A stretch of 64,000 nucleotides of DNA from Albugo candida. Taxonomy: Eukaryota. The stretch spans positions 62,001 to 126,000 of the forward strand of contig JBDOQK010000044.1 in NCBI GenBank assembly GCA_040437565.1, written 5' to 3'. How positions within the stretch are numbered: the stretch's first letter is position 1; each line of letters starts with the position of its first letter. Positions 7,616-38,052 of the stretch are shown in pieces. The notes under the pieces were generated by a model. It was not told the origin of the DNA. It did not search any database and worked only from the letters and a program-made list of their open reading frames with translations. Both the position numbers and the translations under genes were made by a program.

Positions 7616-8926
7616 GGATATGGAAGCGTACTTAAGACGTAAATATAATAAGTTCGCAGTTCGTATTATGTACGCATCGTCACTCGAATTGCAGCGCTAC
7701 ACAAAGCCGGTGTTCAACTTATATATGTAAAAGCTTACAGCTCTGGGTGTGCAGATAATTCTCATCTAGGCTCTTCAGCTTTTAGAGACTACCATTGAGC
7801 TCATATTGTCCATTATTGGAGCGATTGGCTCCATCATCTAATAGCTACATTTATGGTAGATTCAAATGTTGCCGAGCAGGCTAGAGCGAAACTCATTTAT
7901 GGTGCTAGGCGTGGACCACTTTTGCAAAAGGACAATCAGCATCATCATTTTCTCTTTTTGCTGGAAAGCCAGATTTGGCACCAGTCAAGCACCTCACACA
8001 CATNNNNNNNNNNNNNNNNNNNNNNNNNNNNNNNNNNNNNNNNNNNNNNNNNNNNNNNNNNNNNNNNNNNNNNNNNNNNNNNNNNNNNNNNNNNNNNNNN
8101 NNNTTACAGCTCTGGGTGTGCAGATAATTCTCATCTAGGCTCTTCAGCTTTTAGAGACTACCATTGAGCTCATATTGTCCATTATTGGAGCGATTGGCTC
8201 CATCATCTAATAGCTACATTTATGGTAGATTCAAATGTTGCCGAGCAGGCTAGAGCGAAACTCATTTATGGTGCTAGGCGTGGACCACTTTTGCAAAAGG
8301 ACAATCAGCATCATCATTTTCTCTTTTTGCTGGAAAGCCAGATTTGGCACCAGTCAAGCACCTCACACACATCAAGCAGTCGATTGCAAAATCAAACATC
8401 TCAATCAGGTCGCCTATTGTGGGGAAGCAATACGTCGCATTGTGCTTGCAACTGCCTATGTGATAAAAGATGTACGCTATATGTATGTTCCTACTTTTTG
8501 TGAGCTATGAAAGAATCCTTTTGGCTATCAATCCATGTGTATCATTTAGTATACATCATGCTCGCATGAAGACAGCTTGACAGCATATGCGTAGCAATGC
8601 GTAACGATACACCATTTCGTGATGGATGTTCCAATAAAAGTCCAATGAATCTTCTATGTTAGGACAACAGGTGTACGGACGGGAGAAAATCGGTTTGGAA
8701 GCAGCTGCATTTTAGTCGAATCTTTCGTGNNNNNNNNNNNNNNNNNNNNNNNNNNNNNNNNNNNNNNNNNNNNNNNNNNNNNNNNNNNNNNNNNNNNNNN
8801 NNNNNNNNNNNNNNNNNNNNNNNNNNNNNTACCGTAAATTTGGTACAGAGTACCACCAAAGCGCTCATCTGATCGAAAGCGGGATGCACGAAACGTTCTC
8901 CTTTTTGAGACGTATAGAGCCAAAGC

Positions 8927-18760: not shown

Positions 18761-19771
18761 ATGTCTGCGATTACGATTATATGTTTTGGTTTCCTCACGT
18801 TAGGTACGTCCTTTCATTCATGTCTATATATGTAATATCGAGATGTTGTAGTAGCATTTGCGGATGACACGGTCAATCCTTCACTCTGCTTACGTGTAGA
18901 GACTTGTAATAGAGGCGGATTGTCACTCACATGCAACATCACCAAATTCCAGTGCCCGCCTTGCGTGGCCTTTGATACGAATGGCTGCTTCGAGACGCTG
19001 AATGGCGTTTGTCCGTTTGGTTTTAATTGTGCAGATGCTTGGAATGAAATGAAAGGATTGATTCCACGTTCCGATAATCAGACAAAGACCAATACGAAGC
19101 CTGATACACCTGAAAATCGGACCAAGGAAGCTCCAGTAACGACAACGATTCCTGCACCGACTTTACCTCCTCAAACGGAGAATCCTAGTCCGACACCTTC
19201 TGGATCCAATATGAGTGTGATATTTGCAATCATTGGTGCGGCGATCGGGGTCATTGCTGTTGCGGTCATTTTCCTCACATTAGTCCGTCGATCTCGAGCT
19301 GCTAATGACGACGACGAAGAGATGATCAGCACGTCGTCAGGATACAAAAGTGGAGTTCGTCATAGTGACGTCAAGCCTCCCGTCAATTTTACCCAATTCC
19401 ACACAAACAATGAATTTGAAGCTCGATCCGCGTCGTTTGTATCGTCATCACGATCACAGTCTCGAGTGGATCCGGTGCTTGCGTCTAGTGTAGCTAGCTA
19501 TTACAATCAGTCTCGACCAATTAGCAGTCCTGGATGTAGACGTTCCACGATAGGTGTGGCAAGACCAGTGATTCCACCAGGCCCTAGTCGACTATCTGGG
19601 TACTCCACATCATCGAATCCTATGGCACCGTCAGCCACAGAAAATTCTTCCTCAGTAGCGGCTCCTAACTCTGCAGGTTTGGATGTATACGCTGCCGAGT
19701 ACCGGACAGGGCCTTATGTTCAGAACATCGTGGAATCGCCACGTTCAAGGAGAGAATCTTACGAATTTTAG
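18761..19771 (+). CDS. Type-I single-pass membrane protein: small Cys-rich ectodomain, Pro/Thr stalk, TM helix, Ser-rich cytoplasmic tail
   Basis: A signal-like exon MSAITIICFGFLTL (18761-18803) joins in phase across an intron ending at 18899 to ORF 18920..19771. It contains CPPCVAFDTNGCF..CPFGFNC and the TM segment VIFAIIGAAIGVIAVAVIFLTLV followed by RR. Confidence 0.7.
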
Positions 19772-20463: not shown

Positions 20464-20799
20464 GAAGGCTCAAGTAGTACGAGGAGAATTATTTACGTTN
20501 NNNNNNNNNNNNNNNNNNNNNNNNNNNNNNNNNNNNNNNNNNNNNNNNNNNNNNNNNNNNNNNNNNNNNNNNNNNNNNNNNNNNNNNNNNNNNNNNNNNG
20601 TACGAGGAGAATTATTTACGTTTCAAGCTCACGGCTGATACGTATACTATACATCTAGTATACATCTGCTCGAATATAAGTCAACATCTCGACGAAAAGA
20701 ATCGCCTCGTCCTCTCTGCGACATGCGTCTCCAACTGGCTAGTACTATCGCATGCAAGCCGTGAGGTACACTTTGCAAAATTCACTGGAAACTTCACGT

Positions 20800-22024: not shown

Positions 22025-24193
22025 ATGGAACATACGCCTCGAAGCAATTTTGTGGTCTTCCACGACCTCGAAGAAGCTCCACGACGTTCCCAATCATCGC
22101 GTCAATTGCCCAATGGAAGCCTATCCCACCGCCCAAGCGATTCCAATGGAATGCGAGCCAGTATGGAGCCTCTTACGTCCGCAGATGCAAAATCAGTGAT
22201 TCTCAGAGCTAATGCGCCGCCCACTTATAGCGGAAGCTTTGAAGATATTATGAAGCAGATACGAGCGAAAAACTACACCAATCAGCAATTCCAGCGCATC
22301 CAGGAGCAGACAGCAATGAATCGGAACACGTTATTCTTCTCCAACATCTCACCATCCTTCTATGAAGCTTCCTACCTCCAAGTCGCACAGGAGACCTCTC
22401 TCAATCGCGTTCGCATTTGCTTTGGCGTTGGACTGCTCGCGCTTCTTCTCTATTACTCGTACGAGTACTCGAGCGGCGAATGGAGCCCATATTCCGTCAA
22501 AGGGATCGCTGTCGGTCGAACAGCAACCGATCAAACACTTTTAATCATTGGCACTTTTGGTGTCATTCTTCCGTCATTTCTTGTCGGAATTCTTCTCACT
22601 TTCATTCCGTTTGGACGTCGACAATTGGAAAGTATCACTGCAGTCGTATTCTTCGTCGTTGGTGTTTTTATGATTGTGAAAAAACCGATAGAAAAATCAA
22701 AAGGTCCCGTGATTCCTCTTCTGATTCTTCTCATTCCGGTCTTTGGAATCACTCGAATGCGATTCGTACGAAGCTGCTGTGTCGGATGGAGCTTTATCAT
22801 CCTCTACCTGACCATCATGTGCATCGCTCGGAACCTCGTCCCGGCGAAAAACACCTTTGACACGTACACTGACATTCTGTATCAGACGATCAATTACGGG
22901 ATCTCTGTGATCGGCGGAATGGTCTCTCAATATCGTCAGGAACTTCTTCGAAGACGTAATTTCTGCCTCCAGCTTCCATTCTCCGGGACGATGGATTCCG
23001 ATGTCATTGAAGCGATCAAAACGGAGAAATTCTCGCGTCATAGTTTGATGAAAACATGGAATTTGGAATTCCGCGATGAAATGGTCGAAGAATGTTTCTA
23101 TCGACATTGGTACCTTATCGATCCGTTCCCTTACGAGAACCCCAATGCCGGAAGTCTCCATCAGCGCGTTTTCACAACCATTCGATTCGCTGTGCTCACA
23201 TTATCGCTCACACAAGCAGTGTTACTTCTTCAGGACGTGAAATTTCTCAAAATTATGCGCGATCAAGCAATCGATCCTTCCGACTTTACCTATGCGCTTC
23301 TCCTTCGATTTGGGATCACTGTGCCTTTGTATTTGTGCTCGGCGTTGTTTATGTACGTTTTAGGCAAAAGCTTTTACCATAAATGGGTCACGGAAGCCGA
23401 AGAAGCCAAAAATGCAGCATTACGGAATGTGTACAACAACGCAATCGATGTGCCTGACGACTCGATCGCTGAGAAAACGTACGGCTCCATTCGAATGAAA
23501 CTCGTTGTCAACACTGCTCAGATACGAAATGCCACGCAGAATCGCATCCTCGACCTTTTGATCAACAAAGGCGGCTACGTGCGCTCCTCCCAAATCTTTT
23601 CCTCACTTGTGATCGCGTGTCATGTCGCGTGTATGGGAAGCATTCTTTTGATCGTTTCCAGCACCAATCAGATACTTCCAGCGGGTGTTTCCAGCGGCAA
23701 GCCCAAGCCTGTGTACTTTATGGGGTTTCTGAATGCTGTTCTATTTGCCCATCGATCGGGATTCCGCGTCCGATTCATTTACGCCACGTACACGACGCTG
23801 CTTGTGGGTGTAGGAATTGTGATTGCAGCGATTATCGCAAAGTCCGTTTGGATCGAATACGCGGGCTTTATGATTGTGATTCTCGTCCTGGGAATGATGA
23901 TCTCGTACGAGGAAGAGCATTTACGTCGAAGTTTTTTCATTCTCAAATCCATTCGCATTTTGGAATTTGAAGAATGGTTTGCGGTCGTCTTAAGGATCCA
24001 AGGCTGGGTCAAAGAGAGTATTCGGAAGCGGCTTTTGAATGTGCGACGAAAAGCTCAATCGGAACGCACGTGTAATGAGAGTACGCCTCCGATTGTCAAT
24101 ACGTCAATGCAAATGACACAGGCCGCAAAGTTTGGAGTGTATGCACAATTGGTGAATCTCGCGATTGGAATTGTCGATTTATTGACTTCGTAG
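22025..24193 (+). CDS. Polytopic (~12 TM) membrane protein with two adenylyl-cyclase-like 6-TM cassettes and no catalytic domain
   Basis: Intronless ORF; first ATG at 22025 (MEHTPRS). Two hydrophobic blocks, each preceded by an F....E..Y/F motif and ending in E...RR.F. Confidence 0.7.
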   Translation: MEHTPRSNFVVFHDLEEAPRRSQSSRQLPNGSLSHRPSDSNGMRASMEPLTSADAKSVILRANAPPTYSGSFEDIMKQIRAKNYTNQQFQRIQEQTAMNRNTLFFSNISPSFYEASYLQVAQETSLNRVRICFGVGLLALLLYYSYEYSSGEWSPYSVKGIAVGRTATDQTLLIIGTFGVILPSFLVGILLTFIPFGRRQLESITAVVFFVVGVFMIVKKPIEKSKGPVIPLLILLIPVFGITRMRFVRSCCVGWSFIILYLTIMCIARNLVPAKNTFDTYTDILYQTINYGISVIGGMVSQYRQELLRRRNFCLQLPFSGTMDSDVIEAIKTEKFSRHSLMKTWNLEFRDEMVEECFYRHWYLIDPFPYENPNAGSLHQRVFTTIRFAVLTLSLTQAVLLLQDVKFLKIMRDQAIDPSDFTYALLLRFGITVPLYLCSALFMYVLGKSFYHKWVTEAEEAKNAALRNVYNNAIDVPDDSIAEKTYGSIRMKLVVNTAQIRNATQNRILDLLINKGGYVRSSQIFSSLVIACHVACMGSILLIVSSTNQILPAGVSSGKPKPVYFMGFLNAVLFAHRSGFRVRFIYATYTTLLVGVGIVIAAIIAKSVWIEYAGFMIVILVLGMMISYEEEHLRRSFFILKSIRILEFEEWFAVVLRIQGWVKESIRKRLLNVRRKAQSERTCNESTPPIVNTSMQMTQAAKFGVYAQLVNLAIGIVDLLTS

Positions 24194-24329: not shown

Positions 24330-25004
24330 ATGGGGTCGTTTTTGACGATACAAAATGATACGTTGCGGGATTATCGGTGTAAAGTGTCAGCCGATGAAGT
24401 AGGACTGGGAATCGCATCGGTGATCACAGCCATTGTCGCAGGCACAGCAGCGTTTTTTGGGGTCGTCGGCTTTGCATCTTTCATTTCGACCAAAATCGTA
24501 GGCGGAGCGGCTGTGAGTTTGTTCGGAGTCAGTGCTTCCGCGCTTGCGGCTACGAGTCAGACAGCTTCTCTTCTCGCGACAATCATTGGCGGTGTTGGTG
24601 CGACGTCGACATTCACATTGATTACAGTCAAAGCGTTCACAGACAAAGCTTCGGTCAGTAATCACATTTTGATTCGATCGAATGAAATGCATCGATATCG
24701 GAAAATGACGCTCTCACTATGGCGACAGGCGACTTGTGTGCGTTCAGAGATCGTCAATACCACCACTGTTCAAATTGTCACAGTTGTCATGCGTCCATTG
24801 TTCACGGGACCAACGATCAATTCGGATCGAAAATACCGCATCAGAAAATGGATCGAGAAGCGAAGTTACAAAGTACAATATATCGTTGCCAAACCAGTCA
24901 ATTCCACTCTCCCTGACCCCGCTCCCGCCCCATCGACCGCGATTCCGGTGGGGCCATTGGCGTCGGGGATCGCGGGTACAAAGTCTGACGCCGAGTTTGG
25001 ATGA
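24330..25004 (+). CDS. Uncharacterised 'MG-NDT / hydrophobic hairpin / WRQATCVR' family, copy 1
   Basis: MGSFLTIQNDT..YRCK, a Gly/Ala-rich hydrophobic middle and MTLSLWRQATCVR..NTTT..MRPLFTG..IRKWIEK. Clearly paralogous to five nearby ORFs. Confidence 0.85.
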   Translation: MGSFLTIQNDTLRDYRCKVSADEVGLGIASVITAIVAGTAAFFGVVGFASFISTKIVGGAAVSLFGVSASALAATSQTASLLATIIGGVGATSTFTLITVKAFTDKASVSNHILIRSNEMHRYRKMTLSLWRQATCVRSEIVNTTTVQIVTVVMRPLFTGPTINSDRKYRIRKWIEKRSYKVQYIVAKPVNSTLPDPAPAPSTAIPVGPLASGIAGTKSDAEFG

Positions 25005-25067
25005 GAGAAAGGAAGGAACGCTGAATGGAGTCGAATACAAGTAAAAATAGAGGTTGTGACAACACTT

Positions 25068-27105
25068 TCAATTGCTTTTTTTCTCTTCAATGGTGCCTTC
25101 GTCTTCATCGAAATGACGATTCTGGTCGACTGGGTAGATGTATCGCTGGTAGACGTACACAAAGAAGACCAAATCGTCGCGGAAACAGCTCAATCGATGC
25201 ATTGTGGGCATTTCAATGATGAATGCGAAGAGATCGTCGATAAACGTGTTGAGAGCTCGATACATTAGGTACCGCCAGGACAAATGTGCGACGCTTTTCA
25301 GCTTGTAATTGATCACTAATTGCGGAGTCATCATGATGAACCCAAAGGCGTAGACGGCGCCAGTGAGCGATCCAATCGACCACGAGTACCAATTTCGATG
25401 TCTTTTGTACAAGAGCGAGTACATAGCGTACCCGACAATCAATGGGATCAATGCAAACATCATGTGGCTCGTAGCCATCGCATCGGCTTGTGAGGTTTTC
25501 AGTAACTCATCGTCCCTCGAATTTTTTTGAGTAAAAGTTGAGGACGTCGAAACTTTGATCACTTTCCACAGATCGATGCAAACGGTGATCGCGGATGGAG
25601 CCAGTACCAATATCGTTGACCGCTCATCGACTAGGTAGAGAACGATCTAAAGAAAAATACGATTCAATAGAGAATTTGAATTTGAGGGAATACGTACAAT
25701 TATTTGTGAGATGAGGGAAATGAGTAACGAGCGGAGAGATACTCCGACCAAATCGCGTTTTTGTCGCCAGAAATTGATGTCATTTTTGAAAGCGAGCCAG
25801 TCGAAAAGGATGTGGAAGAGCGAGACAGTCATTGTGATAGCCAACAAGTATGGATTCGTATCGGCGACCATACTCCGAAGCATTTCAGCGTCTTTCGAGG
25901 TGCCGTGAGACTCATCTCCCAAGAGCTTTTGTTGAGATTGGATTCCGTTCTCCAATGTGAGTAATATGTGCCATCGTGCAAAGGACATTGGCTCCAAGGA
26001 GATTTTCAGGGGAAGGGACCGTATCGATCGATTCAGAGGGATCAAATTGTCTGATTTGACAGTGCTTTCGTCCACATACATTGCTGGTTTGTACGAAAAG
26101 CCCGGCTTCACATTTACGATATGTAAGTGCTTGTACACAGTCGCTGGAATTTCGCGATATGGATACTTTTTGTGGTCAATGACGAGGCGTATGGCCATAT
26201 GCTACAGAGTGTGTCAAGATGGTGTATGGAGAATGAAGAGAAAATTCGTACCGGCTTCCAGTACGAAATAATGTCAGCGTTAAGAGCTGGATCTTCTCCT
26301 TCCAAAAGCTCTTCCTCATGATCCTCAGCATCATTTGAGTGGATTTCTGATTCTGAGGAAAAACCCCATTTTTTGAAGTGAGGGTCCATGAGGTACGACT
26401 CATTTTTAGCGAGTTCATGAGGAGCGTATCGTATCATCGGATTGGATTGATGAATTGATTTGAGAGGATCGTACGACATGTCTTGCGGATTCGAAGAGAA
26501 GCCTTCCTGCGTCACGTGAACATGGAGATAAATGGTTCCGTTGTGTCGAAGTTTGTACCAGATTTCATCATGATCGTGTGACTGCGAATGCATTTTTTCC
26601 ATTTGTTTGCGTAGAAACATTTTCGAGATGGAAAATTCGGCGTTTTGCTGATTTTGTTTCCAATCAAAAGTTAAATTTGTAAAGGTTTTGAGGAAAACAA
26701 CACTCGCGCTTGAAAAATCCTCGTGAGTCCATTCCTCGCGGAGGGATAGATAAGACTCCGCGTGGAAATGCTGTCCTTCCTGAGAGATCGAGTAAGCTTA
26801 GGAAATTGAATTGCAGGATGCACGCACCGTCCACAATGGGTTGACTGTCGGCCCGTCCACATCCGCGAACTGTGGATCGATGATATAGTAGACCTAGGTA
26901 ATTTACAATTCCTCAGCATGTTCGTTTCGCCCTCAGACACCTTTTGAATGGTTGACACGAACCTGACGCACGACAAAGCCAAAGTAGATCAACTGCAGAT
27001 GGGATGTTAGTAGAGGCTTCAAGTGATGGAAGGAGAGTGTTGACGTACGAATACGACGGTGGAAATCGACGCAAATGTGCACCATCCCCTAAGGACTCGC
27101 AACAT
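25068..27105 (-). CDS. CLPTM1: CLPTM1/CLPTM1L-like membrane protein, multi-exon
   Basis: Motifs NGTIYLHVHV, ISYWKP, DTNPYLLAIT..VSLFHILFDWLAFKNDINFW, GFIMMTPQLVINYKLKSVAHL, YRALNTFIDDLFAFII.MPTMHRLSCFRDD and YQRYIYPVD. Joins ORFs 26114..26620, 25647..26198 and 25068..25610. Probable ATG at 27105 (MLRVLRGW), 5' exons approximate. Confidence 0.92.
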
Positions 27106-27342
27106 GACGGAAGTATAAAGAGGGCCGCTTTTAGCGTGAGGGAAAAACGCGCCGTAATAAAAAATTTGTATAAAGTTTTAGAAACCACTTTAGTCTTGTA
27201 CGAGTGCACGATACTTTATGTTCAAGCTGTTTGACAAGTACAGTACAGGGAATGAAGGTAGAGCGGCAAGGTGGAGATTGCGCGTAAATTATAATAAAGT
27301 AAAATTCGAGTATACTTTGATCGCACCGTTATTTACACGTCA

Positions 27343-27608
27343 TCAAAGAATCAAACAACCACCTCCTGACTGTGCACTTTGTTGCCAAGGATTGGCTCCG
27401 TCATTCTCTCCCAAAAACGGATCCGCAACCGATTGACAGTAATCATATATTCTAACACATTCACAAAGACAATTTAGAATTCAATTTATAAGCGGATGCC
27501 TTACTTTTTAGCCGCTTCGGACGTCGTGCAAGCCGCCTCAATCGTCTTTAAATCGATTTGATAGCTTTCGATTTCTTCCGCAAGCTTCTTAGCCTGGATA
27601 TCGCTCAT
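27343..27608 (-). CDS. GPG1: Heterotrimeric G-protein gamma subunit, 70 aa, 2 exons (absent from the ORF track)
   Basis: Exon 1 27608-27505, GTAAG..TTAG intron 27504-27452, exon 2 27451-27343. Translation: MSDIQAKKLAEEIESYQIDLKTIEAACTTSEAAKKIYDYCQSVADPFLGENDGANPWQQSAQSGGGCLIL*. It has the GGL-type S.A...I..YC, DPFL and NPW motifs and a C-terminal CaaX box (CLIL). Confidence 0.9.
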
Positions 27609-28013
27609 TCTCTTACGAGTGCTTTTAGACTGAGTGACGGGACGCCTTAACTAGACAGCTAGCTATCAATGTTCACGTATGCTCGGCAATCATTGGTTGT
27701 TAGTTCCTTCAAAGCGACGAGATAAATGTCAAGCATGCTGCAATTCAAATAGTTGCAATGTGCAATACAAGGCAAAATATATAAATAGAATGCATCACGG
27801 CAAAGGCTACTACTACTCGGTACATTCGGGTCACAAAATGATAGCGTTTGATCAAGAGTAGTGCTTGTACCCTGTCCCTGTATAGTACACTTGTCTTAAA
27901 TGAATGTCATCAATCAGTTATCCACCTGATTGTGCAAAACGCGAAGCAATTCGTGAAGAATGGCCGAGTGATCGTGTACTATCCACCCGCTCACATTGTC
28001 CGCATGTCCATGA

Positions 28014-28799
28014 TCAATTTTGCGTATTATTGGATTGCGTGTTGACTTGCAAACTCAATGGTGCAATAGGTTCAGACGCAGTAAGATTAGACGGCGTATA
28101 CTTGTTTCCCGCTGTCTCCACTGGCTGAATTACCGTACCATTCCCAGGCACAAAAGAGTCCGTAACGGCTGGTTGATTTGACTTTAATGGTGCAATCTGA
28201 GTCTGATTCATGGTAGCATCGCTTAAAAACGGTATAGTGATGTCATCGCTGCGGATTGTACGCCGAGCAAGCCACCATGCAATGTGATGATCTCTGTTTT
28301 TATTTTTAAAGCCACCACTAAAGATAGGTTGCATCACTAAGGATTCTATTCTTTCGGTTGTTTGGTTGATCATATAAGATCGGACACAGGCGGATGCTTG
28401 CCATGAATATGGATACAAATGATCCCACATGTGGCGGCCCATTGGTCGAACCAGCTCGAATTTTTCTTTCTCGAGTTCATTTGCAATCATAGTAAACGTG
28501 GATAACCCAAACCAAGCAAGTGACGTTCCAATCGAGATTCCTCCACTGGTTTTAAAAACAGAATTAGCGACGTTTCCCATCTCTGTATGTAGACATCCGA
28601 AGATTTTGTATTTGTTGACGACATCGCCCTGTAATCTGAAAAGCTTTGGACCAAAAGCAGCAAAAATTGCGGTCATCTCAGCGAGGGTCGATACAACGAG
28701 TAACAAGGTACTGGCGATTTTCAGTGCGGCTTCGTCATACGAGGTTTTGCATCTCCATTCAAATGGTGTGTCGTTCACTATGGTAAGAGTCGTTCCCAT
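28014..28799 (-). CDS. Uncharacterised MG-NDT family, copy 2
   Basis: MGTTLTIVNDTPFEWRCK...HMWDHLYPYSWQASACVR..NQTT..MQPIFSG..IAWWL. Confidence 0.85.
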   Translation of the reverse strand: MGTTLTIVNDTPFEWRCKTSYDEAALKIASTLLLVVSTLAEMTAIFAAFGPKLFRLQGDVVNKYKIFGCLHTEMGNVANSVFKTSGGISIGTSLAWFGLSTFTMIANELEKEKFELVRPMGRHMWDHLYPYSWQASACVRSYMINQTTERIESLVMQPIFSGGFKNKNRDHHIAWWLARRTIRSDDITIPFLSDATMNQTQIAPLKSNQPAVTDSFVPGNGTVIQPVETAGNKYTPSNLTASEPIAPLSLQVNTQSNNTQN

Positions 28800-29462
28800 T
28801 GCGTCAATGTAAATATGATTTTACAAATAAATGGTAGTGAAGACCTTGTGGCTCTGCACGCTGTTAGAGATCATTTTAGTGTACCACTTTACAGTTTCAA
28901 CGTTGCTCGTTTGTGTATGGAAGCGGGAAAGAGGCTACTTTCAAAGTAGTACGTTATGAAGAGTGCTAGTTTAAAGTGAAATCAAGTTGTGATTTTCGTT
29001 AGATCGTTGTTCGATTCAAGGGATTCCAGATTGTGATTGGAGAATTTATTTTATCAGATTATGACAATGCGGGCTGGTAGCAGTTACGTTATGATACGAC
29101 GGTTATGATCACTAACCGGAGAACCAAGTCCGCGGGAAGTGAGTGCTCTTGGATCAATTTAGGAGCGGTTCTCTAGACAAGCCACGTTCGAACAAGGCCA
29201 GAACTGAACAGCGCTTTTATAAACAAGCGACGTTATGTCATGCTTATAGTTGTAATTATCTATCTCGTCAAGAGCCAATCATCCCGCCAATCGAGCGCGA
29301 TTATTAAGCAAATAAAGTATAATGGAACGATCGTTAGACGCATAACTATACTATACATAATATTGTGTAAGAATACGACATGAGAGTCTTTCAAGCGCTA
29401 ATTTTAAAATAGCATGATTCATTAACGATTACTTTATTACTTGCAAATAAATAAGATCTTTA

Positions 29463-30158
29463 CTACCTACCCAGTTTATCATCGCTAACCGTTAAACTTG
29501 TCCGATTATTCTTTTTCAGTTCTGATAGTACAGCTTCGATCTGTGCAGCGGTAATTGTGACATTTCCATGAACCGTCCTGTTGTCTTCTTGTGGATGATC
29601 TGCTACCACAATCACTACATCCTGTGTCTTTGTTCCTTTCTTTTCCGTCCAGTATCCAATACTTTCATTCTTACTCCAACGACCCGGTCTTCTACTAAAA
29701 ATTGGCCGCATATGGACAGTCTCTGTGCGAACTACCGTTCCATTCAGCTCAAATGTGCGTACACACGTTGCCTGCCGCCAAAGAAGAGGAGACATTTTAC
29801 CCCACGCATGATGGCTGCCAGGCGTTAAGGTTACATAACCTTGACTAGCGTACTCCTCCTCGAGGGTACGAACCACCAACATTCCCAAACTCGATCCAGT
29901 TCCAAGCACGCTTAGTGTATTTCCACCAATCTCAGTCAGCTTTCCTAATACCAAGAGTTTTGGCTGGTTCATCCCGGCAACTACGATTTTCTCGCTAAGA
30001 ATGAATGGCCACGTTTTCGCAAAAACAGAAATGATCGCTCCCACCAAGCTCACAGCAGCAGCAATAATAACTCCGATTTTGATCGAGACATCGTCTGAAG
30101 ACACTTTACACTTCCATGGATCCGGCGTATCATTCACTATACTGATGTATGCTCCCAT
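29463..30158 (-). CDS. Uncharacterised MG-NDT family, copy 3
   Basis: MGAYISIVNDTPDPWKCK...HAWGKMSPLLWRQATCVR..NGTVVRTET.HMRPIFS..IGYWTEK. Confidence 0.85.
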   Translation of the reverse strand: MGAYISIVNDTPDPWKCKVSSDDVSIKIGVIIAAAVSLVGAIISVFAKTWPFILSEKIVVAGMNQPKLLVLGKLTEIGGNTLSVLGTGSSLGMLVVRTLEEEYASQGYVTLTPGSHHAWGKMSPLLWRQATCVRTFELNGTVVRTETVHMRPIFSRRPGRWSKNESIGYWTEKKGTKTQDVVIVVADHPQEDNRTVHGNVTITAAQIEAVLSELKKNNRTSLTVSDDKLGR

Positions 30159-30809
30159 CCGTTTTGCACCTCAAGAAGCGCGCAATGCTTTAGCGTACAG
30201 CGCCCTTGAAATGAAACTCTTTCTGGACGCAACGACAAGGTTACATCAGCTCTCCTGAGAGGGGAGTTCCAAAACCAGTGCAAGTTATATTGTGATGATG
30301 GGAAGATTAAGAAAAATCATTGGTGCAGCGGGGAATGTACCATCAAACCTAGAAAGCCAATTTCGTCCCGGCTGAGGATGTTCACCTGTATACAAGATTC
30401 ATTACCGGTCATACCGAATCTGTAGTATTCGACTTTTTGACAAAAGGCGATCGGTGCAACTATATCAGTTATTTGTAGACTTGTTATGACGCACCGACAT
30501 CCAGTAAAACGAATTCCAAGTGTGTTTTGTGACTGCTTCGAAGAGGGACCAACACTCTCTTTGTCATGCAAGACTTTTAATCATGCACGAGTTCGCCTGA
30601 TTCGTTTAAAGCGATTACATTTTATGCGGGAGAGAAAGTACATAAATAATATGTTCGAGAAGATACTTTGAGTTGTCACATGGAATCTCGATCAATTCAG
30701 TTCACCGTTAGGTGCTGTAAAGATATCACGCGATAACATGTGTTATTGTATACTGTATTAGCAGTTACGGTGTTTAGCCTTGCTATAATCAAAACGATCG
30801 TGTATCTTC

Positions 30810-31466
30810 TCATCTGCGCTGCGAGGCGGATTCATTAAAGTATACACGCGCAGTACCGAGACCATTGGCAGCCAATAGTACACCTTGGTCATCGGTCTTG
30901 TTTAAAGGAACAGTTGCGTTCACAGCTATAATATCCTCTGACTTGACTTTTCCTTTTCTGATCCACTTCATTATACTATAGGAATGCCCACTAAATAGAG
31001 GTTGCATCACAATAGTCTCTGCACGCACATCCGTCGCATTTATTTCGTTGATCCGAGTACAGGTGCTTTGACGCCAGATCAGCGGGGTTACGTGCGTCCA
31101 TGTGTGCATCTCATTTGCTGAGATGTTGACATATTGATGCTTGAGAAGCTCATCTTCGAACGCTCTGATAACCATATCGGAGAAACCTCCAATAGTGCTC
31201 ATCCCCGAGAGTATGAAACCAGAAGCTTCTACATTGAAGACTGTTCGTAGAAACTTGGCAGCTGGCATACCCCAGACAAGTGCTGTTTGATCCGCCGTGA
31301 CGCCCATCCAATACGGCAAATAACACCCCACTACACCAGCGACACCACTGATAACAGCCACGCCTGCAGCAATCCCATATCCAAGATTGATAGCGTAATC
31401 GTCTCCTGATAACTTGCACTTCCAAGTATTGGGTGTGTTATTAACGACTGTCAGATAATTACCCAT
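30810..31466 (-). CDS. Uncharacterised MG-NDT family, copy 4
   Basis: MGNYLTVVNNTPNTWKCK...HTWTHVTPLIWRQSTCTR..NATDVRAET..MQPLFSG..IMKWIRK. Confidence 0.85.
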   Translation of the reverse strand: MGNYLTVVNNTPNTWKCKLSGDDYAINLGYGIAAGVAVISGVAGVVGCYLPYWMGVTADQTALVWGMPAAKFLRTVFNVEASGFILSGMSTIGGFSDMVIRAFEDELLKHQYVNISANEMHTWTHVTPLIWRQSTCTRINEINATDVRAETIVMQPLFSGHSYSIMKWIRKGKVKSEDIIAVNATVPLNKTDDQGVLLAANGLGTARVYFNESASQRR

Positions 31467-31782
31467 CGTGAAGTATTCTGGCCAAAACTGCTGCAGACAA
31501 AGGACAGGTACACGTCGATAAGAAAATTAAAGTATGAAGGTCGGCAGTTTCTGCCGGAATGATTTTGTACCACATTGGGAAGCGGTCCAATAGGTTCCGG
31601 TCTCATTGGTCCCACATTTCACTTGATACCAGTAATCGGAACATATGTGCTGATCGCTCGGTGTATCGCAGTTATAAAACCTAATAACAAAATGATGTCG
31701 GTTAGTATTATTATTCTATACATTTAGTTCACTACAGGCGGGGAAGGGCGCTTTTATTAAGTTTATATCAAAACTCCTTCTA

Positions 31783-32496
31783 TCAAATATGGAACGAATT
31801 GTTTGCGCCTACTGGATTTTCTTGAGACGCAGGTAGAGTTGCAGAATATTCGAAGGGGCTTGCAGAGTGAAGTGATCCCAGACTAGAGGTTGGTACAGTT
31901 TCCCTCACAAATGAATGATTTTGTGACGCTTTTACAAGCTCAACGAGCGCAACGACATCATCAGTTTTTACGCCTCGCTTCTTGATCCATGATTCGATAT
32001 TGTAATCTTTGTTTCGATGTATCAATCCACCAGTAAAAATAGGTCGCATCAACAAAGTTTCAGTCCGGACCGTAGTCGTATTGTAATAATAATTACGAAC
32101 GCACGTCGCTTGTTGCCACATGTGAGGAGTCCATTTGGACCATTGGTGGGATTGATTGGACGGAATCACTATAAACCCACGTTTTGCTAATTCAAGCTGT
32201 ATAGACATATGAACATACAGTCCGAGAGATGCGGCTCCGAGAAGTGGACCACTAATCATTCCAGTCATCTCAATGATTCGAGCATTGGTCACAAACCTGA
32301 TAAGTTCGGGTGCGGTAGTCGCTTTACTGATTTGGTATATCCCGGGAGTGTACGAAGCAGCCGTACCCATCAATCCCAGAACTGCAGCCAATCCCGCGAC
32401 AACTAAGTAACCGATGCGTAATGCCAAGACGTCGTTTGTGAGGTTACATTGCCATTCATTAGCCGTGTTGTTGGTAATGGTCAGAAATGATCCCAT
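31783..32496 (-). CDS. Uncharacterised MG-NDT family, copy 5 (true start inferred at 32496, not 32709)
   Basis: The internal Met72 of the track ORF gives MGSFLTITNNTANEWQCN...HQWSKWTPHMWQQATCVR..NTTTVRTET.LMRPIFTG..IESWIKK, which aligns with the N-termini of the paralogues. Confidence 0.85.
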   Translation of the reverse strand: MGSFLTITNNTANEWQCNLTNDVLALRIGYLVVAGLAAVLGLMGTAASYTPGIYQISKATTAPELIRFVTNARIIEMTGMISGPLLGAASLGLYVHMSIQLELAKRGFIVIPSNQSHQWSKWTPHMWQQATCVRNYYYNTTTVRTETLLMRPIFTGGLIHRNKDYNIESWIKKRGVKTDDVVALVELVKASQNHSFVRETVPTSSLGSLHSASPFEYSATLPASQENPVGANNSFHI

Positions 32497-32942
32497 GTAG
32501 TTGGGCAGAGTCAGAAACTTATAGGCTGAGAGAGGCAAGTTATAGAATATAAACGCATGACACGTTTGCTTGCCTCCCAATTGAGAAGTCCACTCTCCAT
32601 AAAAGGGCGCAAGCAAACGCGACCTTATATTCAAGTGAGAAATGGGAATAAATCCATTAAGTATCACATTTTTTGATAAAGTACGATGAATCGTTGATCG
32701 ACGTCCCACCTTACTGGTTGGTAATACAGCGCGTCACAATTTCCTCCTCCAATCCAAACGCTCCATTCGAATCGAACGCGCCGGTAAATTTCCGCGAGTC
32801 CCACACGTACAAATACAATCCACGCAACATGCGGAATCGGCAAAATGCTGCAACTCTTTCAGAAGAGACGGTTTCCCCATTCCCATTCTCATACTCTTAC
32901 TCTCAATCCCAGTTGACTCATTTTCCATCCCCTGCCCTCATT

Positions 32943-32957
32943 TCATTCCAAAATTCC
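32943..32957 (+). promoter_or_regulatory. Candidate oomycete Inr+FPR core promoter element
   Basis: TCATTCCAAAATTCC resembles the oomycete initiator/flanking consensus (YCATTYY..AWTTY). It lies just upstream of the ATG at 32960 in a pyrimidine-rich tract with further TCATT copies. Confidence 0.3.
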
Positions 32958-32959
32958 AA

Positions 32960-33706
32960 ATGGGAGCAAGTCTCGTTCTAATGAATGACACGGGCGATGC
33001 ATGGCACTGCAAAGTCGCAGCCGATACGAAAGCGCTTTTAGCCTCTTATTTCATCGCAGCGGGATTCTCCACATTCGCCGTACTGTTCGGATTAGTCGGA
33101 TTTTACGCGCCAGTTGTTATCCGAATGGCAAATAAAAACGTAGCGCCTGCAATGGTCGCTGGTATCGCCTTTGAAAAAATCGTAAAAGCATCGTTTTACA
33201 TCGAAATGAGCGGATTTTTAGCTTCCGTGTTAGCCGGGACGACGACTTTTGGAATATTCGCTGTGCGCACCGCCGAAGCCTCATTTGTGAAGCACCAATT
33301 TGAGTTAATTCCTCCTGGCGATTCGCATACGTTTCCGATGCGACCGCTTCGCTGGCGTGAAGGGACATGCACTCGCGTGTTTGAGCTCAATAAAACAACT
33401 GTTCGTACGGAAACACTTTCCATGAAACCAATTTTCAGCGGACTTCCTCATCACAATTTCACTCATAGACTCTCCCATTGGATTCAGAAACATCCTCCCA
33501 CGCATGAGGACATTATGGCGATCATTGGCGTTATGAATCAATCGAACAACAGCGTCTCTATCAATGTGAGAATCAATGGCGATACGTTATCACACATGTC
33601 GACGCTGCACGTCCGAGTAGATGGAAAACATATCCCCACAAACACCTCAGCTCCATTGATTGCAAATACGTTCTCGACACCGGTTTCCGTCAATTCGACT
33701 GTGTAA
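32960..33706 (+). CDS. Uncharacterised MG-NDT family, copy 6 (divergently oriented from copy 5)
   Basis: MGASLVLMNDTGDAWHCK...HTFPMRPLRWREGTCTR..NKTTVRTET.SMKPIFSG..LSHWIQK. Confidence 0.85.
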   Translation: MGASLVLMNDTGDAWHCKVAADTKALLASYFIAAGFSTFAVLFGLVGFYAPVVIRMANKNVAPAMVAGIAFEKIVKASFYIEMSGFLASVLAGTTTFGIFAVRTAEASFVKHQFELIPPGDSHTFPMRPLRWREGTCTRVFELNKTTVRTETLSMKPIFSGLPHHNFTHRLSHWIQKHPPTHEDIMAIIGVMNQSNNSVSINVRINGDTLSHMSTLHVRVDGKHIPTNTSAPLIANTFSTPVSVNSTV

Positions 33707-33988
33707 ATGCATCGTATCATTTCAATTTATAAGTTTTCGTAGAAAATTAATTGAGAAATATTCACAAAATTTTCTACTCACTATCCCTCAACTACAAAAA
33801 TTTCTCCCTCAATTAAAAAATTTCTTCCCTCAAACTATTTTGAGCTTTACGGAAAAACCGCTGAGACGCTTACGACACCAAAATGGCTGCCGGCATAGCG
33901 TTCATGGCGTATTACTCACTTTGACATCTCTCCCAACTCGGAGACAATCGACTCATTCGGATAAATTCTTTTACGGCAAAGCGTCTCA

Positions 33989-35167
33989 ATGGACTCACAG
34001 ACACAAACCGTCCGACAAAACGACCGAAAGATTGGATTTCGACGTCATAGCGTCTCGATGCGTCTCTCACGAGACATTGAATCGATTCAGCGTGGAATCG
34101 ATACGTTTTTCGACACAGTAGGGTCTCCAATCGCTCTTTCAAATCGACCTCTACACCGTTTGGAGACCGCAGTACCGCATCCATCGAATGCGTCGACGAC
34201 CTCTGTCGATCACTTGCAATTAAACGGAGCAATCGAAGCGAAAATCCCACACTTTTTATCGTCCTGGTTCCAAAGCAATCCACATCTTACCGACGCGGGC
34301 AACGAGATACCCAACAGCGTTGAAAGAATATCTCTTCCGCCACAAAAGCACAATCAATCGATTCGCTACGAGGAGCTTCAAGTCGGTCGAAAAATCGGTG
34401 AAGGCGCATTCGGGAAAGTATATCGCGGGAAATGGTCCGGTCGAGCTGTTGCAATTAAAGTGCTCGTATGTCAAGACTTGCGAAGTGATATCATGGCGGA
34501 ATTCCAGTCCGAGGTCGAAATAATGAGCATTTTACGTCATCCGAATATCTGTCGTCTTTTAGGCGCGTGCATGGAGCCTCCCAATCGCGCAATTGTGGTC
34601 GAGTTGTGCCCGGGCGGTTCTCTATGGAACGTCTTACGTCTCAAACGACATTCTCTGACGCTTCCAATGCGTACGAAATTCCTTCTCGACACTGCCAAAG
34701 GGATGAGCTATTTACATCACTTTACACAGCCAATTCTCCATCGCGATCTCAAATCTCCAAATCTTCTCGTCGATAGCGAGTACACGATAAAAATCTCTGA
34801 TTTCGGACTCGCTCGTGTTAAAGCGCACGTCCAAACAATGACTGGAAATTGCGGAACCGTGCAATGGATGGCACCCGAGGTGCTTGGGAATCTCAAATAC
34901 ACAGAGAAAGCCGATGTTTTTTCGTACGGAATCGTTGTGTGGGAAGTCATGACAGGCGAATGTCCGTACGAAGGCTTATCGCAAGTACAGGCGGCATTGG
35001 GTGTTCTCAGTCGTAATTTACGTCCGAGAATCCCGAAAAGCTGTCCTCCATTCTTCAAACGCCTCATGCGCTCGTGCTGGGACCGCCAAGCTGATCTTCG
35101 TCCGTCCTTTGCGCAGATTATCATCGCATTAGGCGAATGGGAAGCATGTGGTTCCATCGATACTTAG
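33989..35167 (+). CDS. TKL-group (Raf/MAP3K-like) protein kinase
   Basis: GEGAFGKV, VAIK, HRDLKSPNLLV, DFG, GTVQWMAPE, DVFSYGIVVWE and CW...RPSF. Confidence 0.96.
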   Translation: MDSQTQTVRQNDRKIGFRRHSVSMRLSRDIESIQRGIDTFFDTVGSPIALSNRPLHRLETAVPHPSNASTTSVDHLQLNGAIEAKIPHFLSSWFQSNPHLTDAGNEIPNSVERISLPPQKHNQSIRYEELQVGRKIGEGAFGKVYRGKWSGRAVAIKVLVCQDLRSDIMAEFQSEVEIMSILRHPNICRLLGACMEPPNRAIVVELCPGGSLWNVLRLKRHSLTLPMRTKFLLDTAKGMSYLHHFTQPILHRDLKSPNLLVDSEYTIKISDFGLARVKAHVQTMTGNCGTVQWMAPEVLGNLKYTEKADVFSYGIVVWEVMTGECPYEGLSQVQAALGVLSRNLRPRIPKSCPPFFKRLMRSCWDRQADLRPSFAQIIIALGEWEACGSIDT

Positions 35168-37476: not shown

Positions 37477-38052
37477 AGCGATGTCTTTACATGTGTGAGA
37501 CTTTTACGGAACCAAGCAGTCTTTACAGTCTCTGTTTTCTCCACAAGTGAGCTGCTGGGGCGCATAAGCGCATATGCGATCGAGGCTTTTGGCTCGGGAG
37601 ATTGTGTTTAAAGATAAACGGCGTAGACGCTGTGGCTATGAATTACAGAGCAAAGAACAGGGTCGATGATCAGCGTATAGCGTGCATCTCATTGTGTAGA
37701 GTGAGCGTTAGCCAGCAGAGTTCTCGTGAGATGTGCATACGGTAGGCCCCAGCCGGTGAGTCATAAATTAACAAATTGAGAGATTTTGGATTGCATTTGT
37801 AGCGATTTAATGGACGGAGCGTATAGAGCGCTATGTAAATGCATTGCATGTGAGACAATACGCAAAGACGTCGCNNNNNNNNNNNNNNNNNNNNNNNNNN
37901 NNNNNNNNNNNNNNNNNNNNNNNNNNNNNNNNNNNNNNNNNNNNNNNNNNNNNNNNNNNNNNNNNNNNNNNNNNAATTATATACGGGTATTTGTTCAAAG
38001 CGGTTATCATTCCTCGCAGTATATAAAGTAGAATGTAAGCCTTAAATTACAA

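Follow-up and report, generated by a model that had tools for sequence, protein, structure and literature searches.

Six genes in the window, which is the whole 64,000-nucleotide stretch of DNA analysed here from the white-rust parasite Albugo candida, encode members of an unnamed and old protein family that is patchily distributed in eukaryotes. As a tentative reading, held with less than even confidence, the gene products may be small proteins which a helical hairpin anchors in the membrane and which present a variable module, probably on its outer side. The hairpin would then hold the protein in the membrane permanently instead of being concealed until insertion, and the protein core would be a membrane-surface platform that shows whatever follows it, a sugar-binding domain elsewhere and a sequon-rich tail in Albugo.

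The cluster is composed of ATG-initiated open reading frames, namely copy 1 (24330..25004, plus strand, 224 aa, HMM E 1.1e-89), copy 2 (28014..28799, minus strand, 261 aa, E 4.8e-100), copy 3 (29463..30158, minus strand, 231 aa, E 1.5e-96), copy 4 (30810..31466, minus strand, 218 aa, E 6.8e-89), copy 5 (31783..32496, minus strand, 237 aa, E 1.9e-102), which was the copy modelled, and copy 6 (32960..33706, plus strand, 248 aa, E 2.8e-102), which is divergent from copy 5. Copy 1 is the outlier of the cluster, with a CLPTM1 gene located between it and the other five. The six intronless frames of 218-261 aa announced in the preliminary description were all found intact at these positions. Searched with an HMM of the six, all six-frame stop-to-stop open reading frames of the window yielded exactly six matches (E 1.9e-102 to 6.8e-89) and no seventh copy, the next match being at E 4.3, which places family membership far beyond chance. 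Spliced transcript contigs of the runs X1 and X4 (one study, with the library type not on record) cover all six genes, five of which are represented by separate gene-sized contigs in X4 (27731-28856 for copy 2, 29402-30201 for copy 3, 30742-31535 for copy 4, 31746-32608 for copy 5 and 32894-33749 for copy 6). Copy 1 is covered by X1 and X4 contigs which extend also into neighbouring genes, and short X6 contigs from a different study add to copy 4. Within the six frames these contigs are free of splice joints; in the adjoining CLPTM1 gene, six short introns have been removed from them. This agrees with the intronless state initially proposed. Equally, a lack of expression of most copies, which would have spoken against the proposal, was not observed, with transcript contigs from one study present for six of six genes.

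A six-way alignment, in which identity to the first copy amounts to 24-29%, contains 16 invariant columns (M1, G2, N9, T11, C17, D22, H121, W131, C136, R138, N143, T145, M154, P156, F158 and W174) and, together with the HMM, upholds the one common plan that had been recognized among the six frames. Both cysteines previously described as invariant, C17 and C136, are present in this alignment. The motif as originally written holds overall, but L5 and T/S6 occur in only five of the six copies and the tryptophan of the H.W element is tyrosine or phenylalanine in two. In the 81-row family alignment, N9 and T/S11 are found in every row and G2 in 75, while Q129, C132, M150, P152 and G156 of the C-terminal part (copy 5 numbering) are conserved in at least 90% of the family. 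C17 and C132 occur together in 65 of 81 rows, C132 alone in nine and neither in seven; C17 is never present without C132.

Two independent AF2 models, of Albugo copy 5 (mean pLDDT 78.1, pTM 0.63) and of the Hypsibius relative P0032, predict the same split beta-sandwich with pLDDT mostly above 90, in support of the earlier proposal of a small beta-rich domain split by a helical hairpin. The predicted sandwich is built from the first 21 residues and around 75 C-terminal residues, between which a long Ala/Val/Gly/Thr-rich helical hairpin of 55-88 aa is inserted; a fold without an insertable hairpin, which would have spoken against the proposal, was thus not obtained. In copy 5, residues 1-22 (32431..32496, minus strand) comprise the MG start, sandwich strands 1 and 2 (E3-8 and E15-21, pLDDT 95-98), the invariant N9-x-T11 and C17. 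Residues 23-105 (32182..32430, minus strand) form the hydrophobic insert, with helices at 23-48 and 88-105 connected by a low-confidence loop (49-87). The C-terminal sandwich part follows at residues 106-182 (31951..32181, minus strand), carries the W-Q-Q-x-x-C and M-R-P-I-F-(S/T)-G motifs and is predicted with pLDDT 91-98 as strands E109-111, E116-122, E127-137, E142-154, E162-166 and E177-182 and a helix at 167-174. Residues 183-237 with the stop codon (31783..31950, minus strand) make up a variable, disordered, sequon-bearing tail (pLDDT 47-59). In these predictions the hairpin leaves the sandwich and returns to it without a detour, so that the sandwich would have to rest directly on the membrane and its two chain ends would have to share one side.

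That no named family could be recognized is borne out by Pfam, a PDB sequence profile and fold searches alike. Among Pfam-A families, nothing exceeds the gathering cut-off for the six copies (DUF3611 reaches 16.6 bits versus 27 and the CFAP184 CBM-like family 12 versus 27) and none does for the core of 65 relatives, in which only C-terminal additions match. The PDB profile search gave nothing below E 0.19, its only matches being non-significant ones to residues 85-161 of paramyxovirus F0 (E 0.19-0.36). No match at E <= 0.001 was obtained with Foldseek, nor with the Hypsibius P0032 model in BFVD. VIA-align returned generic sandwiches only for both models, with Z up to 6.6 and no chain at Z >= 8, and according to the tool, models that lack true relatives typically still reach a best Z of 7-8 and values below 8 are common among unrelated sandwiches. 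These neighbours, with 1-16% sequence identity, include the GBS52 pilin (3phs_A, Z 6.6, rmsd 4.7, 84 aligned residues), SleC (9h68_A, Z 6.5-6.6), a CnaB2 domain (8bdw_A, Z 6.3-6.4) and the transthyretin-like domain of carboxypeptidase D (Z 6.1-6.2). CnaB, transthyretin-like and CBM20-type sandwiches are thus the best structural neighbours of both models, at Z below 8, yet in none of them are strands 2 and 3 separated by a helical membrane hairpin. A confident match to a characterized housekeeping family did not arise.

The comparison with pore-forming folds, suggested in the preliminary description, found no support among the matches listed: no actinoporin, aegerolysin, colicin or ClyA fold stands out in Foldseek or is among the top 50 of VIA-align for each model. 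Pneumolysin domain 4 occurs at Z 5.2-5.5 among about 50 generic sandwiches, and sticholysin II in Foldseek at E 0.78 with a probability of only 0.05. Colicin pore domains and ClyA share a hydrophobic helical hairpin, and actinoporins and aegerolysins are beta-sandwiches that sit on membranes. However, colicin-type domains are all-alpha bundles which bury the hairpin and actinoporins insert an N-terminal amphipathic helix, whereas in the present family the N-terminus is modelled as a beta-strand and the hairpin is without a shield. A colicin- or ClyA-type alpha pore former does not fit the two models, in which only the beta-sandwich and one short helix (167-174 in copy 5) are predicted outside the insert.

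Hydropathy (Kyte-Doolittle) confirms that the hydrophobic middle is real. Family-wide, the insert is composed of 21% alanine, 13% valine and 12% glycine, with a mean length of 70 aa (range 55-88), and is devoid of any charged residue in 16 of 81 members. Lysine or arginine flanks it on both sides and its middle has few or no charges in most members. Family-mean hydropathy displays a helical periodicity of 100-105 degrees in both long segments and a beta periodicity in neither. Glycine and proline are conserved within it at G47 (59/81), P51 (50/81), G61 (50/81) and G67 (62/81). Since only a sandwich of around 100 aa is available to shield an insert of such length, uncharged in 16 of 81 members, a soluble pore-former state looks unlikely, and a permanent membrane anchor is the simpler reading.

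Substrates of N-myristoyltransferase (NMT) carry Gly at position 2, a small and uncharged residue 3 and Ser/Thr or some other small residue at position 6. At the N-terminus, all six copies begin with MG, and position 6 is T or S in all but one. The start of the profile is contained in 148 proteins, 125 of which begin at most three residues from it, 114 of these 125 with Gly2. Of the 23 'extended' proteins, 14 have a Met-Gly precisely where the motif begins, suggesting that their open reading frames were called too long, and proteins with short genuine N-terminal extensions still begin with Met-Gly. A PROSITE-type myristoylation pattern fits 73 of 81 alignment rows. The conserved Met-Gly start is most simply explained as a candidate N-myristoylation signal. 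The N-terminal 22 residues are hydrophilic, with two predicted beta-strands, and the first hydrophobic stretch begins near residue 25. The secreted oomycete effector classes RxLR, CHXC and CCG are recognized by a signal peptide at the N-terminus with the motif of the class behind it; the six proteins, with a hydrophilic N-terminus and no N-terminal signal peptide by hydropathy, do not belong to them.

The profile search retrieved 205 clusters of relatives, whose sources are the water mould Pythium, a diatom, tardigrades and, among plants, Selaginella, Sphagnum and a fern. In these relatives all added modules are C-terminal. A Pfam scan of 65 longer or previously unscanned proteins detected ricin-B above the cut-off in three (P0067, P0095 and P0123), two hevein domains in P0039, B_lectin in P0047 and CVNH in P0060, with Fascin in P0112 just at the cut-off (23.2 versus 23.1 bits). 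Both hevein domains of P0039 have the full pattern of eight cysteines each; Pro/Thr-rich linkers are found in P0038 and P0055, and the tails of several relatives are Cys-rich (9-15 cysteines). Chimerolectins are lectin-linked effectors such as ricin-B- or lectin-fused cytolysins, and the likeness of the family to them lies in a core joined to lectin modules in relatives, a patchy distribution and no signal peptide. A recognizable carbohydrate-binding domain above cut-off, as expected of a chimerolectin, is present in P0039, P0047, P0060, P0067, P0095 and P0123, and Pfam found no lectin domain in the six Albugo copies. Unlike chimerolectins, the non-lectin part carries no known toxic or enzymatic domain and has an unshielded hydrophobic insert of around 70 aa.

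On the part of the tails, four orthologue pairs between A. candida and A. laibachii bear out the earlier statement that middle and tails diverge while flanks are conserved: identity is 84% in the N-terminal strands (74/88), 76% in the C-terminal sandwich (239/316), 64% in the hydrophobic region (215/335) and 38% in the tails (94/249), with 46% for the tail of copy 5. The A. laibachii orthologues are AlNc14C23G2358 (P0004) for copy 1, AlNc14C23G2355 (P0012) for copy 2 and AlNc14C23G2349 (P0003) for copy 6, each a sister with SH-aLRT 100, and AlNc14C23G2351 (P0008) for copy 5; for copy 3, no orthologue was found among the rows in the tree. Four of the six copies predate the split of the two species. 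The family itself did not originate locally in Albugo and is patchy and eukaryote-wide. The six Albugo proteins contain 34 N-x-S/T sequons versus 12.4 expected (ratio 2.74), compared with 61 versus 55.5 (ratio 1.10) in the 19 other long open reading frames of the window. Their tails account for 16 sequons (5.8 expected) and none of the 34 lies inside residues 23-105. The number of tail sequons is kept in A. laibachii (11 versus 8, with four at matching alignment positions), although tail identity is just 38%. We infer that the fast-evolving, sequon-rich tails of Albugo take the place of the sugar-binding modules seen in other lineages. Neither the sequon excess nor the N-myristoylation-type N-terminus had been mentioned in the preliminary description.

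Which side of the membrane the sandwich faces is indicated by conflicting signals. As judged from sequence features, the extracytoplasmic side is more likely, with an N-out/C-out arrangement in which the first helix would be a reverse signal-anchor; the hevein cysteine pattern, the Pro/Thr-rich linkers, the Cys-rich tails, the sequon excess, a net acidic N-tail (K+R 1.81 versus D+E 3.40) and the pairing of Cys17 with Cys132 support this side. The Albugo copies would then be glycosylated parasite surface proteins with diversifying exposed tails. Against the outer face, the sequon excess is indirect and tails outside Albugo hold few sequons (0-3 each). N9-x-T11 is situated in a tight beta-turn and may be structural instead of a glycosylation site, because its middle position, too, is restricted, being D or N in 80 of 81 rows. 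The Cys17/Cys132 pattern would equally fit two buried core positions, as the residues are replaced by V, I or A, and the positive-inside rule is undecisive because the charge flanks are nearly neutral. Furthermore, N-myristoylation takes place in the cytosol, where the modified end of most such proteins stays, and this argues for the opposite topology. A hairpin protein that is N-myristoylated and whose sandwich and two termini point into the cytosol, from an internal or the plasma membrane, is possible though unlikely; with a Gly/Ala-rich hairpin in the bilayer, perhaps as a non-spanning wedge, it would serve to scaffold, shape or mark a membrane domain and, in some lineages, recruit cytoplasmic lectin-type modules. 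The Met-Gly-x-x-x-Ser/Thr start kept even with a lengthened N-terminus, the missing signal peptide with a first hydrophobic stretch only near residue 25 and the K/R-flanked insert with its nearly uncharged middle agree with this location. Equally, cytoplasmic proteins are known to contain four of the five types of fused domain (ricin-B, CVNH, B-lectin and fascin-type). The eight-cysteine hevein domains, mucin-like Pro/Thr-rich linkers and Cys-rich tails, however, are extracytoplasmic hallmarks, and the family-specific 2.7-fold sequon excess and the conserved cysteine pair oppose a cytosolic face as well.

The pore-forming or membrane-fusing role voiced in the preliminary description gains indirect support from the lectin fusions of relatives, but loses ground with the unlikely soluble pore-former and the missing pore-former fold among listed matches. 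A membrane-active effector, in which hairpin and lipidated N-terminus destabilize or permeabilize an apposed membrane (in Albugo a host-derived or partner-cell membrane) targeted by the C-terminal lectin or tail, in the manner of lectin-linked cytolysins or FAST fusogens, is rather unlikely. Fusions to lectin-type domains of five families, which arose repeatedly and independently as is typical of chimerolectin toxins, and the patchy taxon distribution favour such an effector, as do the conserved Gly/Pro of an insert better preserved between orthologues than the tails, neither of which a mere anchor needs, and a composition resembling viral fusion peptides, with the paramyxovirus F0 match being non-significant. 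On the other hand, no listed match to a pore-former stands out, a soluble precursor is hard to picture because amphipathic shielding helices are missing, no beta periodicity suggests a pre-stem, the six Albugo copies are without a lectin domain and an obligate biotroph would presumably gain little from lysing host cells. A still more specific version is improbable: cellular lectin- or tail-targeted membrane-perturbing proteins whose outer-face sandwich would present a myristoylated N-terminus and a fusion-peptide-like hairpin to an apposed membrane, driving lipid mixing, fusion or permeabilization. If true, the family would be a eukaryotic analogue of viral FAST fusogens built on a new principle, and the diversified array of six Albugo genes would operate where haustorium and host membrane meet, or when cells fuse with one another. 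That the genes are decaying duplicates or chance open reading frames is hardly conceivable; the missing annotation and literature on the family would agree with it, but six intact frames, orthologues with conserved cores in a second species, transcript contigs for all six genes and 205 related clusters do not.

With respect to the preferred outer-face anchor, if it and the myristoylation both hold, a lipidated N-terminus would be located on the outer face as in the reovirus FAST proteins p14 and p15. As small membrane proteins, p14 and p15 resemble the present family in lacking a signal peptide, in having around 20-40 N-terminal amino acids ahead of the membrane helix that comes first, and in a Met-Gly start of the myristoylation type. 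FAST proteins, however, are viral, with one transmembrane helix in N-out/C-in topology, a polybasic cytosolic tail and no beta-sandwich, whereas the present family has two long helices and a predicted sandwich that unites both chain ends; no sequence or fold similarity was found between them, and the two helices and the cellular genes with orthologues in two Albugo species place the family outside the FAST fusogens. The lipidated N-terminus of p14 and p15 is an ectodomain that destabilizes bilayers and mixes lipids (PMC7830690), a mode of action that would also favour the membrane-active effector. No precedent other than p14 and p15 was found in which the conflict between the two topology signals is reconciled.

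The array comprises six ATG-initiated open reading frames, and the ORF listing of the window places them at exactly the coordinates assigned in the preliminary description: copy 1 (24330-25004, plus strand, 224 aa), copy 2 (28014-28799, minus, 261 aa), copy 3 (29463-30158, minus, 231 aa), copy 4 (30810-31466, minus, 218 aa), copy 5 (31783-32496, minus, 237 aa) and copy 6 (32960-33706, plus, 248 aa). In the six-copy alignment A1, copies 2-6 are 24-29% identical to copy 1, a divergence at which substitutions between the paralogues are saturated, and 16 columns are invariant, among them M1, G2, N9, T11, C17, D22, H121, C136 and an M-x-P-x-F motif. An HMM built from the six copies and run against all six-frame ORFs of the window recovered the six at E 1.9e-102 to 6.8e-89 and no seventh copy in the window, the next match lying at E 4.3, a gap which indicates exactly six copies without decayed extras. 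Recent gene conversion has been rejected, as DNA repeats between the copies span just 21-27 nt and at least two of them (D1 and I1) fall within conserved coding motifs; the duplications are old. Among named proteins, those nearest to the six copies are annotated as 'conserved hypothetical' in Albugo laibachii Nc14 and Albugo candida. A quick maximum-likelihood tree of 89 members places each of copies 1, 2, 5 and 6 next to an A. laibachii sister protein (AlNc14C23G2358, 2355, 2351 and 2349, respectively; SH-aLRT 99-100), and the tags run in the same order as the window genes. The four sister pairs together with the matching tag order make the array older than the split between A. candida and A. 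laibachii, and the tag numbers suggest synteny between the two species. Orthologues of copies 3 and 4 were not found among the 89 tree members. A. candida has at least one other copy (P0016) at a different place in its genome, and within-species variants are few, at 0-7 per protein.

The genes are transcribed. None of the sequencing runs is recorded as RNA. However, in a CLPTM1-family gene situated between copies 1 and 2 (25068-27505, minus strand), six stretches of 48-69 nt, each with CT..AC ends, are missing from contigs of runs X1 and X4, which belong to one study. As CT..AC ends in a minus-strand gene correspond to GT..AG introns, this gene contains six very short introns and the X1 and X4 contigs derive from spliced RNA. 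X4 provides one gene-sized contig for each of copies 2-6 (27731-28856, 29402-30201, 30742-31535, 31746-32608 and 32894-33749); copy 1 lies within a longer X4 contig that also takes in neighbouring genes. The contigs possess no joints within the six ORFs, which fits intronless genes. Runs X5 and X6 contributed short, low-depth pieces only. The X1 and X4 evidence, coming from one study, documents presence, not strand or expression level. That the ORFs are non-functional is excluded for practical purposes.

Relatives of the six proteins are widespread. Word-indexed searches with A1 and with the 81-row family alignment A2 returned just 5 and 9 proteins because low-complexity words crowded the candidate list, and the family census therefore derives from an exhaustive profile search and a region-restricted search. 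Among 1.84 billion representatives, the exhaustive search identified 205 clusters at E <= 1e-3, of which 155 also pass E <= 1e-10 and 48 pass E <= 1e-30. Oomycete members occur in Pythium insidiosum (adjacent tags P43SY_007608 and 007609; proteins P0169/P0170), P. oligandrum (adjacent Poli38472_000262 and 000263; P0171/P0172) and Globisporangium polare, the adjacent tags in two Pythium species indicating that tandem arrays of the family are not peculiar to Albugo. Other members come from the diatom Epithemia, the tardigrades Hypsibius and Paramacrobiotus, and the land plants Selaginella, Sphagnum and the fern Adiantum. The ESM Atlas contains unnamed eukaryotic clusters only, one dominated by Oomycota (130 members) and one by Cnidaria (61 members), besides a Basidiomycota cluster (scores 0.85-0.87) that is a lead only. 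An Atlas PUD1_2 cluster (0.77-0.79) and bacterial Gly-zipper clusters (TM 0.38) were rejected as under the tool's own bars. Counting fungi, for which the evidence is a lead only, alongside stramenopiles, animals and land plants, the module spans at least four eukaryotic supergroup-level lineages.

The architecture of the module has been assessed by structure prediction. In the AlphaFold2 model of copy 5, calculated with the 81-row alignment (mean pLDDT 78.1, pTM 0.63), strands at residues 3-8 and 15-21 (pLDDT 95-98) precede a helix (23-48), a low-confidence stretch (49-87) and a second helix (88-105), after which six strands and one short helix extend up to residue 182 (pLDDT 91-98), followed by a disordered tail. 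A second, independent model, for a Hypsibius protein of 193 aa (pLDDT 79.3, pTM 0.70), has the same sandwich, with the hydrophobic insert helical at low confidence. Both models support the earlier proposal that a helical hairpin interrupts a small beta domain. Foldseek produced 0 matches at E <= 0.001 both for the copy 5 model against the PDB and for the Hypsibius model against BFVD, and a wide VIA-align search with both models retrieved generic small sandwiches only (CnaB pilin domains, transthyretin-like domains, CBM20 and the PepT extracellular domain) with best Z 6.5-6.6 and no chain at Z 8. Actinoporin, aegerolysin, colicin and ClyA folds, to which a likeness had been considered, do not appear among the matches listed by these fold searches, which is not proof of their absence.

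The hydrophobic insert (residues 23-105 in copy 5) has a mean length of 70 aa (range 55-88) across the 81 rows of A2, is composed of 21% Ala, 13% Val, 12% Gly, 10% Thr, 9% Ile and 9% Ser, and is devoid of charged residues in 16 of the 81 members. Family-mean hydropathy displays a helical periodicity of 100-105 degrees in both long segments; a beta pre-stem was rejected, as no periodicity of 170 degrees was seen. Positions G47 (59/81), P51 (50/81), G61 (50/81) and G67 (62/81) are conserved, and Albugo orthologues share 64% identity in the insert, as against 76-84% in the sandwich and 38% in the tails. A sandwich of 100 aa could not plausibly hide so long and uncharged a hydrophobic stretch, and the insert is therefore read as a permanent membrane anchor, which supersedes the initial idea of an insertable element. 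The insert (positions 30-105 of the A3 profile) also aligned at non-significant E 0.19 and 0.36 with residues 85-161 and 86-164 of two chains of the paramyxovirus fusion glycoprotein F0 (1g5g_A and 3maw_A), where the fusion peptide lies and the first heptad repeat begins; the resemblance is read as common composition.

Both ends of the proteins carry additional clues, absent from the preliminary description. At the N-terminus, the profile start is present in 148 family proteins, 125 of which begin no more than three residues away from it; 114 of these 125 have Gly at position 2, and Ser/Thr occupies position 6 in 77 of the 81 rows of A2. The Met-Gly start matches the N-myristoylation consensus, and the family N-terminus has, at the level of sequence, the pattern of an N-myristoylation signal. 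Met-Gly is positioned exactly at the motif start in 14 of the 23 N-terminally extended proteins, and these 14 are probably over-called ORFs; P0161, one such case, is the window's own copy 5. Several proteins with short genuine extensions still open with Met-Gly, and the fact that it is kept while its spacing from the first strand varies speaks for a role of the free Gly as such. At the opposite end, the additions in relatives, all C-terminal, include a ricin-B lectin (P0067, P0095 and P0123 above the Pfam cut-off, P0055 just below), two hevein domains (P0039), a B-lectin (P0047; P0151 below the cut-off), CVNH (the Selaginella protein P0060) and a fascin-like domain (P0112, just at the cut-off), while other tails either are rich in Cys (9-15 residues) or consist of Pro/Ser/Thr to 42-54%. 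The core is repeatedly coupled to sugar recognition, and its recurrent joining with five kinds of sugar-binding domain indicates that the job of the module is tied to glycan recognition at the membrane. The six Albugo proteins themselves harbour 34 N-x-S/T sequons versus 12.4 expected by shuffling, compared with 61 versus 55.5 in 19 other long window ORFs used as control. None of the 34 resides within residues 23-105. Between the A. candida and A. laibachii orthologues, whose tails are 38% identical, tail sequons number 11 versus 8, 4 of them in the same column. The top ratio among the controls (6 versus 2.9 expected) belongs to a 240-aa ORF at 19049-19771 (plus strand) with no Pfam match.

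No Pfam family was assigned to the core in the six copies or in 65 relatives, PHROGs searched with 3 members gave nothing under E 0.058, and the profile against all PDB sequences gave nothing under E 0.19, the third match being mitochondrial IF3 at E 0.89. In the literature searched, publications with the four A. laibachii, the Hypsibius or the Selaginella locus tags were not found, and broader searches listed nothing relevant. As neither a sequence, profile or fold assignment nor a paper was retrieved, the proteins are regarded as new in family and in architecture, not in mechanism. This conserved eukaryotic module, without family name and without solved or recognisable relative, follows an unusual plan, a beta-sandwich stitched across a membrane hairpin with a lipidation-type N-terminus, which together with the C-terminal lectins of relatives could not be matched to any described kind of architecture.

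As both chain ends build one sandwich, both must be located on the same side of the membrane. The reading we tentatively prefer, while holding it at somewhat less than even confidence, is that of hairpin-anchored membrane proteins: the hairpin would anchor the protein and hold the sandwich on the membrane surface, more likely the outer (lumenal or extracellular) one, and a variable C-terminal module would be displayed, which in Albugo would be a glycosylated, fast-diverging tail of parasite surface proteins. An outer location is favoured by hevein domains with the full Cys pattern and mucin-like linkers in relatives, by the Cys-rich tails, by the net acidic N-tail and by the pairing of C17 with C132, since no row has C17 alone (of 81 rows, 65 have both residues, 9 have C132 alone and 7 have neither). 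Equally, the sequon excess in Albugo, the sequon-free residues 23-105 and the tail sequons kept in A. laibachii point outwards. On the other hand, myristoylation is a cytosolic mark, a signal peptide is lacking, most of the fused lectin types also occur in cytoplasmic proteins, and N9-x-T11, located in a tight turn with its middle residue also constrained, may be structural. That the same proteins face the cytosol as N-myristoylated membrane scaffolds is considered less likely. Less probable again are membrane-active effectors, pore-forming or fusogenic. In their favour are the fusions to lectins, the Gly/Pro positions conserved within the hairpin and a composition like that of fusion peptides; a soluble precursor is implausible, however, and the searches gave no significant similarity to pore formers or fusogens. 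The preferred outer-face anchoring has one documented precedent that reconciles it with the lipidation signal: the reovirus FAST proteins p14 and p15 have short N-terminal ectodomains which carry myristate and act on bilayers (PMC7830690). A lipidation signal of cytosolic type combined with add-ons of extracytoplasmic type poses a sharp topology question, and settling it would tell whether cells, like FAST-encoding viruses, put myristoylated protein ends outside. In Albugo, an obligate parasite of plants, the tandem array is transcribed and of old origin yet diverges fast, and the protein tails are rich in sequons; this makes the six proteins candidate parasite surface or host-interface proteins, which fall outside the usual signal-peptide-based effector screens.

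A functional link of the array to its neighbours has been rejected, as the CLPTM1-family gene and a protein kinase ORF (33989-35167) are ordinary genes. The 3' ends of the CLPTM1-family gene and copy 1 are close, with one transcript contig covering both. Directly upstream of copy 1, a multi-pass 722-aa ORF (22025-24193, plus strand) with many hydrophobic segments has no Pfam match at E <= 0.001 and adds a further membrane protein without annotation. The window also contains seven N runs, each exactly 100 nt long, which represent scaffold gaps or masking (2392-2491, 8004-8103, 8730-8829, 20500-20599, 37875-37974, 51536-51635 and 61883-61982), none of them inside the array. Within the kinase ORF, loose contig ends at 34459/34500 (X1 and X4) and at 34732/34767 (X1) delimit a stretch, 34459-34767, that may be due to splicing not yet annotated or to sequence of an alternative or paralogous kind; the ORF itself reads through as a complete kinase domain.
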